Below are positions 44,834-48,743 of a DNA stretch of 64,000 nt, piece by piece. The notes below the pieces were generated by a model that worked only from the letters and a program-made list of their open reading frames with translations, was not told the origin of the DNA and did not search any database. Source of the stretch: Alteromonadaceae bacterium. Lineage in GTDB: Bacteria; Pseudomonadota; Gammaproteobacteria; Enterobacterales; Alteromonadaceae. The translations under genes were made by a program, and so were the position numbers. Every line of letters begins with the position of its first letter. Position 1 is the stretch's first letter. The stretch lies in the NCBI GenBank assembly GCA_015487235.1, contig WFQC01000152.1, forward strand, positions 47,751-111,750, read 5' to 3'.

Positions 44834-46648
44834 ATGCTTAAACTGCTTACTCATTTATTTTTAATACTAACGCTATTTGCCTGTACGCAAACTGCTTCAG
44901 TACAGCAACAAAAAACATCAACAGCACAGGCAAAATTAACACAGCTTATTCAAGATGAAGCGCTTTTTAGAAAATCAGCAAGCCCTTTTAATCGGTTAGA
45001 AGTTGGGGGAAGTAATGCTCAACTACCTGATTTGTCTGCTGAAAAACTTGCCGACAACCACCAAAAGCTCAATAAAATTTATCAACAGTTAACACAAATT
45101 AATGCCCAAGCACTCCCCTTAGCTTCGCAAATTGACTTATCAGTACTGTTATACAAATTGAAAAATGAATTAGACAGCTATAACAACCATGAACATTATA
45201 TGCCCTTAACGGCAGAGTCTGGTTTTCATGTTTGGATCGCTAATATTAATAAACGCGTTAAGATGAAAACTGAGCAAGATTATCAAGACTACCTTGCGCG
45301 CTTACATGCTTTACCTCAGTATTTTGAGCAACAAATAGCATGGATGAATAAAGGCATTGCAGCAGGTATAACACAACCTCAAGTTGTTTTAAAAGGGTTC
45401 GAACAATCAATTTTGGCTTTTATTAAAAACACTCCTGAAGAAAGTAGTTACTACCAACCTTTCAAACAGTTTCCCGCACATTTTACTCATGCACTGCAAG
45501 CAAAATTGCAACAACAAGGCAAACAAGCCATTAAAGAAAAAGTATTTCCAAGTTATAAAAAATACTATCACTTTATGGTTGAACATTATCAACCGATGGC
45601 ACGTAAAAATATTGCTGCCACTTCATTACCTAAGGGTAAAAATTATTACCAAAATCGCGTACAACATTACACAACGTTACCCATATCAGCAGATGAAATT
45701 CATCAAATAGGTCTAAACGAAGTTGCTCGCATTAAAAAAGACATGCTGACTATTATTACTGAATTGGGCTTCGACGGAAGTTTTGCTGATTTTATTCAAG
45801 ACCTGCGTACAGATCCGCAGTTTTATGCTAAAACCCCCAAAGCATTATTAAAAGAAGCTGCTTATTTAGCGAAAAAAATGGATGGCAAATTACCAAAATT
45901 ATTTAAAACATTACCAAGAACGCCCTATAGTGTTGACCCAGTACCCGCCAACATTGCTCCTAAATACACAACAGGGCGCTATTCTCCACCAAACAGAGAA
46001 GATCAAGCGGGTAGTTATTGGGTGAACACTTACCGTTTAGATCGTCGCCCACTTTATGTTTTACCAGCCTTAACCCTACACGAAGCCGTACCAGGCCATC
46101 ATTTACAAGGTTCTATCGCAAAAGAAATGAACAATGTAGCTGAATTTCGCAACAACACTTATATATCTGCGTTTGGTGAAGGTTGGGGGCTTTATGCTGA
46201 ATATTTAGGTATTGAAGCCGGTATGTATGAAACGCCCTACCAACAATTTGGGCGCTTAACTTATGAAATGTGGCGAGCATGCCGATTAGTCGTTGATACC
46301 GGTATTCACAGTAAAGGTTGGACTCGCCAACAAGCCATTAATTATCTAGCAGAAAATACCGCCCTTTCATTACACAATGTGACCACTGAAATAGATAGGT
46401 ATATCTCATGGCCAGCACAAGCTTTGTCTTATAAGATGGGTGAAATTACCATCAAAAAACTGCGTAACAAAGCCGAAAAAGCGCTAGGCGAGTATTTTGA
46501 TCTACGTATATTTCACGATAAAATACTTGAAAATGGCTCTATGCCATTGTCTATGTTAGAGAAAGTTATATCTAAATATATTGAACAAGAGAGTAGAAAA
46601 ATAAAGGAGAAGGGAAGGCACGCAAAGTTAACCACAGAGAAACCTTAA
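44834..46648 (+). CDS. DUF885-family lipoprotein (putative metallopeptidase-like)
   Basis: 604 aa with a lipobox-like N-terminus (LTLFAC) and the HEAVPGHH motif of DUF885. Confidence 0.8.
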   Translation: MLKLLTHLFLILTLFACTQTASVQQQKTSTAQAKLTQLIQDEALFRKSASPFNRLEVGGSNAQLPDLSAEKLADNHQKLNKIYQQLTQINAQALPLASQIDLSVLLYKLKNELDSYNNHEHYMPLTAESGFHVWIANINKRVKMKTEQDYQDYLARLHALPQYFEQQIAWMNKGIAAGITQPQVVLKGFEQSILAFIKNTPEESSYYQPFKQFPAHFTHALQAKLQQQGKQAIKEKVFPSYKKYYHFMVEHYQPMARKNIAATSLPKGKNYYQNRVQHYTTLPISADEIHQIGLNEVARIKKDMLTIITELGFDGSFADFIQDLRTDPQFYAKTPKALLKEAAYLAKKMDGKLPKLFKTLPRTPYSVDPVPANIAPKYTTGRYSPPNREDQAGSYWVNTYRLDRRPLYVLPALTLHEAVPGHHLQGSIAKEMNNVAEFRNNTYISAFGEGWGLYAEYLGIEAGMYETPYQQFGRLTYEMWRACRLVVDTGIHSKGWTRQQAINYLAENTALSLHNVTTEIDRYISWPAQALSYKMGEITIKKLRNKAEKALGEYFDLRIFHDKILENGSMPLSMLEKVISKYIEQESRKIKEKGRHAKLTTEKP

Positions 46649-46670
46649 AAATAGTGCACTGAAAAATCCA

Positions 46671-46772
46671 GATAAGCCCCCACTATATCTAAATTCGGCA
46701 GTCCCGCTATCATAGGTTTCCCCTTAGACCGGTAACTTTGCGTCTCTAACTTTCGTTAGATTTGCCCTTATC
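46671..46772 (-). promoter_or_regulatory. c-di-GMP-I (GEMM-I) riboswitch aptamer
   Basis: The minus strand reads GATAAGGGCAAATCTAACGAAAGTTAGAGACGCAAAGTTACCGGTCTAAGGGGAAACCTATGATAGCGGGACTGCCGAATTTAGATATAGTGGGGGCTTATC. In order it contains GGGCAAA, a 6-bp hairpin with a GAAA tetraloop, GACGCAAAG, a hairpin with a CUAAG/UAUG receptor-like loop, and AGCGGGACUGCC. This is collinear with the V. cholerae Vc2 aptamer. A GAUAAG/CUUAUC helix closes the element. Confidence 0.85.
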
Positions 46773-46794
46773 GAGCTTTAGTAGCTCATTTGCA

Positions 46795-46822
46795 ATTATA
46801 GTTATTGCGCTACGATTGTAAA
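46795..46822 (-). promoter_or_regulatory. Sigma70-type promoter driving the riboswitch
   Basis: The minus strand reads TTTACA-16 nt-TATAAT (-35 at 46817-46822, -10 at 46795-46800), 23 nt upstream of the aptamer. A small 5' hairpin, GAGCU-ACUAA-AGCUC, lies between the promoter and the aptamer. Confidence 0.65.
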
Positions 46823-46892
46823 CAAAAATTTTTCAAGTTGACTAAATTAATTTATTCAACTGAAATAAAACCAAAAAAGAGACTTACATTTG

Positions 46893-48743
46893 ATGATCAA
46901 AAGATATTTCTGGCTAGCCCTTGCTGTTTATTTCATTAGCGTACCTGCTGTTTTTGCAGCTTTAGCACCAAGTAATGATCAAAAGATAGAAGAAAATATT
47001 GCTCTTATTAACAGTTTTTATCGGTATAAAGGTGAAGTGCCGCCCTATAGCCAAATTGTTACTCTTGCCACAACCGTGATCAAAAACAGTAAAAGTTACA
47101 ATGATACCATCATAGCAAAAGCCTATGTTTTACTTGCCGATGCTGCGATTTATCAAGGAGATACGGCAAAAGCAGTGCAATTTTCTCAAGATGGCTTAAC
47201 GCAAGGCATGATTGATACCGATGTAAAACTTAATTTATTAATGAAAGTAAGCGCTGGTTTTTACATTCAGAGTAATTATCAAGCGGTATTAAAAACTATT
47301 GAACAAGTACTTGAGTTAGCCGTAGGTGAAAAATATTTAAAATATCGACTCAGCGCTTTTGGTTATCAAGCCACTATTCATGCCTTAGCTGGCGAATACG
47401 AAAAAGCCTATAAGCGATTAAAAGACATTGATATTATATTAGATAAAAACCCTCGTTTTACTGATCAAATTGAATTATTACAAATACTGGCTTTGGCTAA
47501 TCATAATTTAAGAGATTTTGAAACTTCACTGGCACTACACCTTAAATTATTACAAATTCAATTTAACTTAAATTTGAAAGAAAACATTGAACGTACTTAT
47601 TACTATTTAGCGCAAGCCTACCTTAAATTAGCGCGCTATGATGATGCTTATAATACTTTTTGGCAGGTAAAACTCTTAGCAGAAAAAAAATCTGCGCCTA
47701 TTTTACTCGCTTATGCTGAATTAGGTATTGGCGAAACCCTTTATGAACAAGGTGACTACGACGTTGCTTATTCGTCGTTAATCAAAGCGGAAAAATTATT
47801 TCGAGGTAAAAATTTAACCAAACTTTACCTTACTAACTTAATTGTATTGTCTAAAGCAGCCAAACAAACAGGGCGTACTATTTTTGCCTCACAATTACTG
47901 CAAAAGGCTGAAGAATTATCAACAAAAGCAGAGCTCGATCCTGATCAAATAATTCTTTACCAAATGCTTGCCCACAAATACCAGCATCAAGGTGATTACC
48001 AAAAAGCATTAAGCTTGTTAACCAAGTATGTAAGTGCAACAGAAAAACTAAAAGGTGAAGAGCTTGCCAAAGCAAAACTGCCTAAAAATGCAAAACAAGC
48101 TTCACAAAAAAGTAAAGACTTGGCGTTAAAGTTATCAGAGAAAGGTACTTTATATGCCGACTATAATAAAAACCATCAACGACTTATATCATATATTTGG
48201 GGGTTAGTTGCGCTGGTGGCAATACTAGCCATTGCGATGATATTTATTTGGTTAAAGTATCGTAATTACCGACTACGGGTTGAATATAATGAAATTGAAG
48301 CGCCCAAAGATTATTTACCATCGCCAGTAAAAACCAAAAATATTTATCAACAACAGTATAAAGAAGCGCGCAAATTTGAGTACCCTATTACCATTGTCTA
48401 TATTCTGGTACGCAACTGGCACGATCTATCTCATCATTTTACAAAAAGAGTGATGAAAGATGTGCACAAAGCTATAGCACAGCTAATTAACGAAAATATT
48501 AGTGAATTTGAAATTGCTGGTTGCCTTAATGAAGGTGAATATATCATTTTATTTCCTCATCGCACCAAGCAAGCGTTAACTGCCGAATTATCACAATTAT
48601 CACAGGCAATCAAAACAAGGTTTTTTGCCAATTTAGGTGAGTTTTCTGTTATCATTGAAATGTCGGCACAAACGCCCGATATACAAGACATTGACCCTTT
48701 TGTTTTCTTAGCTCAGCTAACTGAACAGCTAAAAAGCAAATAA
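46893..48743 (+). CDS. TPR-repeat protein with TM segment and degenerate GGDEF-like C-terminal domain
   Basis: The track ORF starts at the TTG at 46890, and an ATG follows at 46893. The protein has a signal peptide or anchor, about 380 aa of TPR-like repeats and a TM segment (LISYIWGLVALVAILAIAMIFIW). Its C-terminal domain aligns to GGDEF, but the active-site motif reads NEGEY and the RxxD position reads SEFE. Confidence 0.75.
   Translation: MIKRYFWLALAVYFISVPAVFAALAPSNDQKIEENIALINSFYRYKGEVPPYSQIVTLATTVIKNSKSYNDTIIAKAYVLLADAAIYQGDTAKAVQFSQDGLTQGMIDTDVKLNLLMKVSAGFYIQSNYQAVLKTIEQVLELAVGEKYLKYRLSAFGYQATIHALAGEYEKAYKRLKDIDIILDKNPRFTDQIELLQILALANHNLRDFETSLALHLKLLQIQFNLNLKENIERTYYYLAQAYLKLARYDDAYNTFWQVKLLAEKKSAPILLAYAELGIGETLYEQGDYDVAYSSLIKAEKLFRGKNLTKLYLTNLIVLSKAAKQTGRTIFASQLLQKAEELSTKAELDPDQIILYQMLAHKYQHQGDYQKALSLLTKYVSATEKLKGEELAKAKLPKNAKQASQKSKDLALKLSEKGTLYADYNKNHQRLISYIWGLVALVAILAIAMIFIWLKYRNYRLRVEYNEIEAPKDYLPSPVKTKNIYQQQYKEARKFEYPITIVYILVRNWHDLSHHFTKRVMKDVHKAIAQLINENISEFEIAGCLNEGEYIILFPHRTKQALTAELSQLSQAIKTRFFANLGEFSVIIEMSAQTPDIQDIDPFVFLAQLTEQLKSK

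Follow-up and report, generated by a model that had tools for sequence, protein, structure and literature searches.

The riboswitch on the minus strand of the window, by which we mean the whole 64,000-nucleotide stretch of DNA analysed, is a conserved, self-promoted c-di-GMP-I transcription unit, and the 11-nt complement of its aptamer core, which lies in the 3' half of this unit, is genuine and forms the heart of a conserved anti-aptamer. The unit is about 190 nt long and has a fixed order of promoter, 5' hairpin, aptamer, hairpin H1 and a 3' strand of about 55 nt; its length falls between 177 and 197 nt in 72 of 73 sequences.

The promoter is of the sigma-70 type (TTTACA-16-TATAAT, 46795..46822, minus strand) and matches 11 of 12 consensus positions. 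Across 76 related loci at least 10 of the 12 positions are matched in 73, with TTTACA in 67, TATAAT in 66 and the 16-nt spacer in 70. Just 3' of the likely transcription start is the 5' hairpin P0, GAGCU-ACUAA-AGCUC (46773..46787, minus strand), which appears in every fold, is paired in 90% of alignment cells and shows changes on both sides at three of its five pairs. The c-di-GMP-I (GEMM-I) aptamer follows (46694..46776, minus strand); it matches Rfam family RF01051 over model positions 1-87 of 87 with 82.7 bits, where the gathering score is 35, and by this match the window RNA is predicted to bind c-di-GMP. Its helices covary across 72 relatives (five of the six P2 pairs have changes on both sides), the junction GGCAAA ... 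GACGCAAAG ... CUGCC is invariant in all 72, and the GNRA-class features, a GAAA loop and a CUAAG/UAUG receptor, are both found. No other Rfam family was found in the platform at E values up to 5. No co-directional gene follows the aptamer in the window, where the next gene is a convergent DUF885 gene, so that the 5'-leader position of RF01051 is lacking here but is found in about 33 related loci with a GGDEF gene behind the aptamer. The window unit does have what marks the small-RNA type, its own promoter and no coding sequence.

Of the 301 family genomes searched, 98 carry the unit, spread over 31 of 59 genera, Colwellia, Cognaticolwellia and Thalassotalea among them. Other families of the order match the aptamer only, and matches to the H1 motif outside Colwellia and Thalassotalea fall in scattered taxa, as chance predicts for a 16-mer. 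The downstream context varies. At type-A loci (about 33 of those fetched) the unit stands before a co-directional GGDEF gene whose start lies 133-349 nt beyond the anti-aptamer box, while at type-B loci (about 40, the window included) it faces the convergent DUF885 gene; still other contexts exist, for example at loci L053, L055 and L015. The A and B arrangements have been exchanged at least 5-8 times with the unit intact throughout. The unit is 83-89% identical through its tail, while the DUF885 coding sequence next to it reaches about 72%, and in both locus types similarity between relatives stops right after the tail. The unit sits on the strand opposite DUF885, where that gene ends, a placement conserved among orthologs, as is expected of an antisense riboswitch. 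Nevertheless, because in several type-B genomes (six or more loci) a terminator hairpin separates the unit from DUF885, antisense control of DUF885 can hardly be the general selected function, and, given that the unit leads GGDEF in about 33 loci, DUF885 may not be the selected target.

The complementarity itself was as described in an earlier note on this DNA. The aptamer core ACGCAAAGTTA (46743-46733) has an exact reverse complement, TAACTTTGCGT (46630-46620), on the same minus strand, and a repeat search reports the pair. The complement is part of a longer anti-aptamer box, GG-U-UAACUUUGCGU (46620..46633, minus strand), which is the complement of aptamer ACGCAAAGUUA-CC (46743-46731). All 72 distinct relatives keep the TTTGC core of the box unchanged and at least 90% have the flanking C, with variable surroundings; the six central box:core pairs can form in all 72 sequences. 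When full-length RNAs were folded, the minimum free energy structure paired the aptamer core with the CUUUGCG box in 73 of 73 distinct sequences, whereas with shuffled 3' segments this pairing arose in only 11.6% of folds (85/730) and shuffling cost 10.3 kcal/mol, in agreement with the earlier judgement that such an inverted repeat is unlikely to arise by chance. As both core and box are invariant, the central helix cannot show covariation, and the proposed covariation check succeeds only at the flanks: L007 combines aptamer GUCACC with box GGUGAC, and L073 combines aptamer GUAACC with box GGUUUAU, the 3' strand of the aptamer itself being changed to match. Conservation, these few flanking compensations and thermodynamic prediction are thus what support the anti-aptamer, and together they uphold, across 31 genera, the predicted pairing of the downstream 11-mer with the aptamer core in ligand-free RNA. 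The box is not a by-product of DUF885 coding, being present at type-A loci, which lack DUF885, and at 37 of 39 type-B loci where the stop codon lies downstream of it.

Between aptamer and box stands hairpin H1 (46663..46696, minus strand), AGAUA-UAGUGGGGGCU-UAUCU followed by GGAUUUUU at 46690-46663, with a core stem of 46690-46686 paired with 46674-46670 that is extended in the window. The core stem is paired in 98.9% of cells, and two of its pairs have changes on both sides. The hairpin at 46691-46662 had been taken for a weak terminator; it is indeed present, conserved and covarying, but the terminator role is not supported. The U-run that follows it is not conserved, several loci, L009, L057, L085 and L088 included, having none; the A/U-rich stem has a core of only 5 bp, unlike an intrinsic terminator, and a terminator scan makes no call; and the hairpin persists at read-through length, where 70 of 73 full-length ligand-free folds place it at the tip of the alternative rod. 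Competition between its 3' arm and a GAUAAG:CUUAUC helix, which had also been pointed out, exists in the sequence, but this alternative helix has moderate support: 85.7% of cells are paired, the middle pair is unpaired in 28 of 72 sequences, and the shared column pairs better within H1. The H1 loop, UAGUGGGGGCU (46685-46675), is invariant in 72 of 72 sequences. It could pair with the 3' arm of P0 in the window, but variants of P0 such as AAACUC are uncompensated and we discarded this pairing. We note that the invariant loop has no role in the riboswitch model favoured below.

The ligand-free RNA is predicted to fold as a single long rod that is capped by H1 and has lost the aptamer. Folding RNAs of different lengths bears this out, in that RNAs ending after H1 retain the aptamer in 42 of 73 cases and full-length RNAs in none of 73. 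The 3' strand is complementary, step by step, to the aptamer 3' strand, the P3 tip, the ligand-binding core and, via its C-rich tail, the 5'-edge AAGGG. In folds of the window RNA the first part of this strand, a spacer and anti-P3 strand (46636..46660, minus strand), pairs through CAGUGCACUAU with the aptamer 3' strand and through AGGUUUCUCU (46645-46636) with the P3 apical segment GGGGAAACCU; a GUUUCC-like segment occurs at the spacer position in most relatives, in an alignment too gapped for pair counts. The last part is a C/U-rich, G-poor tail, GCCUUCCCUUCUCCUUUAUUUUUCU (46595..46619, minus strand), whose CCCUU pairs with AAGGG at the aptamer 5' edge in the ligand-free fold. Among the relatives 58 of 71 ligand-free folds join the tail to the 5' GAUAAGGG segment, and 82% of cells are paired at fixed columns. 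As the window RNA grows, P3 is lost stepwise once about nt 138 is reached, and the junction follows at nt 174. The rod lies 14.8 +/- 4.8 kcal/mol below the aptamer state in free energy, equally in both locus types, and the binding energy of c-di-GMP is of the same order as this difference. In the window the rod is favoured by 24.6 kcal/mol and is thus unusually stable, for which reason this copy might be hard to switch. At type-A loci, where no opposite-strand gene confounds the composition, the C-rich, G-poor tail is seen as well, with a C/G ratio of 2.5 in the 80 nt after the box and 0.96 in the next 80 nt.

We favour, as the most probable single reading although with only moderate confidence, a self-unfolding c-di-GMP-I unit in which the ligand would decide between zipper and aptamer and Rho-type termination would take place in the C-rich tail. 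H1 would nucleate the alternative fold, and the 3' strand, as it is made by RNA polymerase, would zip down from there and strip the aptamer layer by layer. An aptamer locked by c-di-GMP would resist the zipping and so leave box and tail unpaired, and the stretch of roughly 77 nt that separates box from aptamer would give a slow ligand time to bind; a longer expression platform has been argued to raise ligand sensitivity under kinetic control (argument relayed by PMC9262584). We suggest, tentatively and from base composition alone, that Rho could load on the free C-rich, G-poor tail and end the transcript. High c-di-GMP would then mean a short RNA and low c-di-GMP read-through. In sister genomes the read-through would enter the gene for the GGDEF protein, a diguanylate cyclase, and so provide negative feedback; in the window, where GGDEF is replaced by the convergent DUF885, it would run antisense to the DUF885 3' end.

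A less probable but still credible reading is that the unit is a stand-alone gene for a c-di-GMP-binding RNA, consisting of promoter, sensor and effector strand, for which the downstream gene is irrelevant. The ligand would block the internal zipper and expose an effector element (box, C/U-rich tail or G-rich H1 loop) for action in trans on other RNAs or proteins, or else the RNA would serve as a c-di-GMP buffer. The same boundaries recur whether GGDEF, DUF885 or something else lies downstream, three contexts at the least, and have survived the 5-8 or more exchanges of downstream gene, some type-B loci place a terminator before DUF885, similarity ends exactly after the tail, and the invariant H1 loop suggests an interaction partner; there is precedent in the Vc2-containing small RNAs, whose abundance depends on c-di-GMP (10.1101/617340). 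A free-standing RNA would also explain why about a third of the sampled Colwellia-family genomes keep the unit unchanged while its downstream gene is repeatedly swapped. Against this, no conserved intrinsic terminator fixes the 3' end of the unit (5 of 58 folds have a strong U-tract behind the closing helix), and a hairpin with a U-run lies between the unit and the GGDEF start at only 4 of 31 type-A loci, as would be expected of a leader. The sole target tried, the translation start region of the TPR gene, which is a near-constant neighbour of the unit, showed no excess complementarity (mean z = -0.18, mononucleotide shuffles only) and was set aside. Another GEMM-I riboswitch in the same cell is a speculative target, proposed because the box complements the universal GEMM-I core.

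Returning to the self-unfolding riboswitch, its sign could conceivably be reversed. In the window the AAGGG:CCCUU closure of the rod is followed by CUUUAUUUUU, with 8 U in 10 nt, which could terminate transcription of the ligand-free RNA. Generalised, the ligand-free rod with its U-run would be an intrinsic terminator, and c-di-GMP, by keeping AAGGG within the aptamer, would allow read-through and act as an ON signal, the sign put forward in the earlier note. This we regard as improbable, even though the pairing of the 5' GAUAAGGG segment with the tail in most ligand-free folds fits it. Only the 5 of 58 folds just mentioned have 7 or more U among the 10 nt that follow, and 17 of 58 have 4 or more U in succession, so a rod plus U-run is not a general, conserved terminator; the U-run of the window is the complement of Lys/Ile codons in an extended DUF885 tail; and it would be unusual for a terminator stem to enclose about 150 nt of branched RNA.

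That extended tail also bears on whether the window copy is a mere relic, a leader left behind when DUF885 replaced GGDEF and now without a selected role. The DUF885 gene (44834-46648, plus strand; Pfam DUF885, E = 8e-169) ends at 46648, its 3' end (46596..46648) meeting the unit, and the Pfam domain ends at residue 578 of 604. In the window the last 14 or so codons of the gene are complementary to the tail, the box and some of the spacer. There the stop is found 20 nt upstream of the box, and in L004 it is 3 nt upstream, as against 20-260 nt downstream of the box start at the other type-B loci, and the C-terminal tail of the window protein is the longest in the set. DUF885 having grown across box and tail, the unusually stable window rod, the absence of a co-directional gene and the lack of a type-A GGDEF ortholog in the window genome (best match 28% identity) would all suit a relic. 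We nevertheless think this quite improbable, more so than a reversed sign, since promoter, aptamer, H1 loop, box and tail are kept equally well in types B and A, deep all-B clades of 8 and 11 genomes exist whose TPR proteins are 0.2-1 changes per site apart, and the window aptamer still scores 82.7 bits.

The earlier note had proposed that a hydrophobic 40-aa peptide is translated under the control of the core:box pairing. The frame concerned, found in the window frame list, starts with a GTG and runs from 46635 to 46513 (46513..46635, minus strand). Because DUF885 ends at 46648, this frame and the box are antisense to its last codons. A nearby in-frame start followed by at least 30 codons occurs at 3 of 39 type-B loci and at 3 of 32 type-A loci, where the opposite strand lacks DUF885; the start codon is absent in L004, of the same genus, in L009 and L011, and in others. 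GTG, AAGG and open frame are not conserved and the peptide has no Pfam match, so we reject the frame as a gene: it is a chance frame, antisense to DUF885 codons, just the shadow of the sense gene that the note had itself allowed for. That the box masks the GTG start and c-di-GMP turns on translation is accordingly very unlikely, despite the AAGG placed 7 nt upstream of the GTG in the window, all the more as the same box precedes GGDEF genes in about 33 loci. For annotation, the 40-codon frame should not be called a gene, and the C-terminus of the window DUF885 protein should be seen as extending across an RNA element.

The unit offers a natural experiment, one and the same RNA facing a diguanylate cyclase gene or the end of DUF885 in close relatives and equally conserved in both. 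It gives a rationale for the length of the platform, extra time for a slow-binding ligand, and divides the platform into parts that can be mutated, namely the H1 nucleation hairpin, the stepwise anti-aptamer strand and the C-rich tail. As culturable strains such as C. psychrerythraea 34H carry the unit, its action as antisense, free RNA or leader, and as an ON or OFF switch, is directly testable.

Antisense-acting riboswitches are known from the SAM riboswitch behind ubiG-mccBA in Clostridium acetobutylicum and the B12 riboswitch/AspocR of Listeria. In the catalogue of such arrangements by Serrano-Gutierrez & Merino 2023 the c-di-GMP class is the most enriched for backwards orientation, with 152 cases (P = 5e-62), and its supplementary tables list c-di-GMP-I behind DUF885/COG4805 in Colwellia sp. 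Arc7-D, PAMC 21821, MT41 and Arc7-635, as well as in C. psychrerythraea 34H (CPS_4378) and Cognaticolwellia beringensis (PMC9943018). The placement at the 3' end of an opposite-strand gene is the same as in the window and is thus already catalogued, but the catalogue gives positions only, without the expression platform or a check of relatives in which the unit precedes a gene (PMC9943018). The analysis of the platform is new. To our knowledge, none of the 152 backwards c-di-GMP cases has been explained.

In Rho-dependent riboswitches, such as the Mg2+ riboswitch of mgtA in Salmonella and the FMN riboswitch of ribB in E. coli, the ligand state sets the access of Rho to a C-rich, unstructured stretch. 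We know of no c-di-GMP example. The present unit differs from these in that the action of Rho is suggested by the tail C/G ratio of 2.5.

The Vc2 riboswitch of Vibrio cholerae, upstream of tfoY, is likewise a gammaproteobacterial GEMM-I RNA in a long untranslated region, and there c-di-GMP sets the abundance of short riboswitch-bearing RNAs that are not made by intrinsic termination (10.1101/617340). In Vc2, however, the aptamer sits at the 3' end of the small RNA and protects it from degradation, with no long-range anti-aptamer described (10.1101/617340), whereas in the window unit the aptamer is followed by about 100 conserved nt that are predicted to be able to unfold it. The Bc1 c-di-GMP-I riboswitch of the Bacillus cereus group is likewise conserved and shares an unusually long platform with alternative structures, and the effect of c-di-GMP on its downstream genes is difficult to detect (PMC11218506). 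It has two canonical rho-independent terminators 28 bp apart, in contrast to the window platform, which has an anti-aptamer strand and no conserved terminator. The Cd1 riboswitch of C. difficile, an OFF switch, and the pilM riboswitch of Geobacter, an ON switch, both GEMM-I and studied during transcription, have in common with the mechanism proposed here kinetic control, strand exchange of the aptamer with a competitor further downstream, and a poly-U pause candidate behind the aptamer (PMC9262584). Those riboswitches use compact terminator/antiterminator pairs next to P1, whereas the competitor in the window unit is at a distance of about 100 nt and is predicted to invade P3 and the ligand-binding core as well as P1.

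On the minus strand of the window, 46776–46694 matches the c-di-GMP-I (GEMM-I) aptamer over its full length (Rfam RF01051; 82.7 bits, gathering score 35). The aptamer occupies part of the 244-nt gap separating two plus-strand genes, DUF885 (44834–46648; Pfam E = 8e-169) and a TPR protein gene (46890–48743). The plus strand also encodes, further upstream, a GGDEF protein and a DUF523/2-thiouracil desulfurase. A near-consensus promoter, TTTACA-16-TATAAT (46822–46795, minus strand; 11 of 12 consensus positions), and this gene layout indicate that the riboswitch is self-promoted, has no co-directional gene behind it and is aimed into the 3′ end of DUF885. On the same strand, the aptamer core 11-mer ACGCAAAGTTA (46743–46733) has an exact complement, TAACTTTGCGT, at 46630–46620, a pair also recovered by a repeat search; between them stands the hairpin AGAUA-UAGUGGGGGCU-UAUCU followed by GGAUUUUU (H1, 46690–46663), and a GTG-started ORF occupies 46635–46513. 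An earlier note had listed these items, all of which were found in the sequence at 46743–46513, and had proposed an ON switch for the ORF. The minimum-free-energy fold of 46790–46500 (z = -4.3) uses the 11-mer helix together with a second long-range helix, GGGGAAACCU:AGGUUUCUCU. A 21-nt imperfect palindrome (81% complementary) at 46829–46868, between the divergent riboswitch promoter and the TPR gene start, could be an operator or a hairpin. The same genome has a second c-di-GMP-I riboswitch (L002, contig C111:13820–13921, minus strand; 61.6 bits) in a conventional position, with a 118-aa ORF about 67 nt downstream and a longer one after it.

When 46900–46450 was compared with relatives by BLAST, the segment from the promoter to about 46600 was 83–89% identical in other genera, as against about 72% for the neighbouring DUF885 coding sequence; matches in the order's other families were limited to the aptamer. 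The unit is carried by 98 of 301 genomes and 31 of 59 genera of the family (Colwellia, Cognaticolwellia, Thalassotalea and related MAGs), counts that come from related genomes and thus not from independent samples. The order of parts is fixed in the 76 loci fetched: promoter (at least 10 of 12 consensus positions in 73), 5′ hairpin, aptamer, H1, a spacer of 25–45 nt that is variable in sequence and often forms a hairpin, a GUUUCC-like segment, GGUA, CUUUGCG(UGC), and a C/U-rich tail, directly past which similarity among loci ends. The H1 loop UAGUGGGGGCU (46675–46685, minus strand) is invariant in all 72 aligned sequences, from many genera, and the RNA, taken from its presumed start to 22 nt beyond the CUUUGCG box, measures 177–197 nt in 72 of 73 distinct sequences. 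Besides the aptamer's own, no Rfam family matched the platform. Two lineage-specific insertions leave the unit otherwise intact: about 33 nt in the P3 apical loop of the aptamer at one locus (L015), and 13 nt, AUACGCUUAAUAG, between aptamer and H1 at four loci of one genus (L014, L096, L099 and L100).

Most loci belong to one of two types. In type A (about 33 loci), a GGDEF gene of about 340 aa lies behind the unit in the same orientation, its start 133–349 nt beyond the box, and a convergent DUF523 gene comes next; in type B (about 40 loci, the window included), a convergent DUF885 gene fills this slot between the unit and the DUF523 gene. A few loci (L015, L053, L055) are arranged otherwise, and in 72 of the 76 the gene upstream is a divergent TPR gene. 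Type-A loci such as L037, L041, L062 and L066 also share a conserved block containing a pair of CTAG cores (GCTAGCACTTT, 10–12 nt, TTGCTAGAGAAT), 60–80 nt upstream of the GGDEF start and well downstream of the unit, which may serve that gene as a promoter or operator of its own.

The complementarity of box and core is real and conserved, and the anti-aptamer role that had been proposed for it is borne out by folding: at least 9 of 13 core positions pair with the box in full-length folds of all 73 distinct sequences, and the aptamer is kept in none, while RNAs ending just past H1 give the aptamer fold in 42 of 73. With the segment after H1 shuffled, the core paired downstream in 11.6% of 730 folds, at a mean loss of 10.3 kcal/mol. 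The six central box:core pairs are present in all 72 sequences of the alignment, and because both sides are invariant they cannot covary. The few flanking positions that vary do so in step: aptamer GUCACC is matched by box GGUGAC in L007, and GUAACC by GGUUUAU in L073, where the 3′ strand of the aptamer itself has changed to compensate. Covariation is seen in the aptamer helices and in H1 (98.9% paired), with 15 pairs changed on both sides; the spacer alignment is too gapped for reliable pair counts. The longest exact complement of the core is 7–13 nt across the family (mode 8–9), so that the perfect 11-mer of the window falls in the upper tail and is not unique. It is the core of a conserved, functional-looking anti-aptamer, a structural claim that draws on conservation, on a handful of compensatory changes and on nearest-neighbour folding, in which neither ligand nor tertiary contacts are taken into account.

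Folding of the window RNA at increasing lengths gave the aptamer as the best structure at 96 nt and again at 114–120 nt, after which H1 forms. Starting near nt 138, the nascent strand pairs with the aptamer 3′ strand, at 156–168 nt it takes the P3 tip, and at 174 nt, with the box complete, the junction pairs are gone. This ends in a rod, with the unfolded aptamer as its 5′ arm and H1 at its tip; in 58 of 71 sequences, AAGGG at the aptamer's 5′ edge is paired as well, with the C-run of the tail. Against the best structure that retains the aptamer, the rod is favoured by 14.8 ± 4.8 kcal/mol, equally in both locus types, and by 24.6 kcal/mol in the window. Binding of c-di-GMP by GEMM-I aptamers is slow, and its energy is of the order of the average gap. 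A co-transcriptional zipper nucleated by H1 could invade the aptamer, and would be blocked by one already loaded with ligand; the delay of about 77 nt, possibly prolonged by a pause at the U-rich stretch that follows H1, would widen the time for ligand binding. A longer platform has been argued to give more sensitivity under kinetic control, and a poly-U pause candidate is noted in the Cd1 switch (PMC9262584). If the aptamer is kept locked, 47 of 73 folds join the H1 loop's G-run to the C-rich tail by pairing; nothing there is able to covary.

The 40-codon ORF, whose start the earlier note had tentatively taken as the gated site, is not a gene. It has no family match, its GTG is missing in L004, of the same genus, and in L009, L011 and others, and an in-frame start within 30 nt opening at least 30 codons occurs at equal rates in type-B loci (3/39) and in loci without DUF885 opposite (3/32). 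Nor is the box a by-product of DUF885 coding, since DUF885 crosses it only in the window and in L004, with stops 20 and 3 nt upstream of the box, respectively; at all other type-B loci the stop is 20–260 nt downstream of the box start. The DUF885 C-terminal tail of the window is the longest of the set (38 aa past the NGSMPL motif, against 21–33 elsewhere), and its last 14 or so codons (KEKGRHAKLTTEKP, 46596–46648, plus strand) are complementary to the RNA tail, to the box and to a stretch of the spacer. In the window, coding sequence seems to have grown into the RNA element.

H1, previously read as a terminator, is conserved and forms the tip of the rod, and the terminator reading is probably wrong. 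No conserved canonical terminator was found: at least seven U in the 10 nt past the closing helix occur in 5 of 58 folds, the window among them, and there the U-run lies opposite codons of the extended DUF885 tail. In type A, the 80 nt past the box, with nothing encoded opposite, are rich in C and poor in G (C 18.4, G 7.3; C/G = 2.5, against 0.96 in the following 80 nt), as would be expected where Rho loads, and a hairpin with a U-run of any kind precedes the GGDEF start in only 4 of 31 leaders. For these reasons we favour, with low confidence, a model in which ligand-locked RNA would leave box and tail single-stranded for Rho (OFF), and ligand-free RNA would bury them in the rod and be read through. 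The outcome would be negative feedback on the diguanylate cyclase in type A, and antisense transcription into DUF885 at low c-di-GMP in the window.

Antisense control of DUF885 cannot be a universal function, as several type-B genomes have a DUF885 terminator hairpin between the unit and the gene. Where the unit lies 58–128 nt from the DUF885 stop (L056, L076, L079 and L080), hairpins of -10 to -23 kcal/mol with U-runs, on both strands or, in L076, on the riboswitch strand only, would terminate the DUF885 mRNA and the riboswitch RNA alike, short of any overlap between them. This separation keeps alive the view that the unit acts as a stand-alone RNA; a first test of trans pairing with one target, the TPR start region, was negative. 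A switch of the sign opposite to Rho-dependent OFF is also possible. That the window holds a decaying relic is argued against by the equally intact state of the unit in both types, deep all-B clades included.

Both types are found within single genera, and the TPR protein tree requires at least eight changes of type, five of them forced by strongly supported branches. Neither type has a close ortholog of the other's gene in its genome: the best match to the type-A GGDEF protein in the window's genome is 28% identical, and DUF885 homologs elsewhere in type-A genomes are only 42–56% identical. This evolutionary pattern, with GGDEF or DUF885 behind the same riboswitch, is informative.

In the survey by Serrano-Gutierrez and Merino (PMC9943018), no class was more enriched in antisense position than c-di-GMP riboswitches (152 cases), and their supplementary tables place c-di-GMP-I behind DUF885/COG4805 in five Colwellia genomes, including C. 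psychrerythraea 34H, and in Cognaticolwellia beringensis, the same arrangement as in the window, but as positions only. The Vc2 riboswitch of V. cholerae gives c-di-GMP-dependent sRNAs without intrinsic termination (10.1101/617340), and in the Bacillus cereus group the long platform of Bc1 contains two terminators (PMC11218506). Neither a conserved long-range anti-aptamer of this kind nor the alternation of sense GGDEF and antisense DUF885 behind one riboswitch unit is described in these three reports. The riboswitch class and its catalogued antisense position are known already; what is new is the description of the conserved platform.
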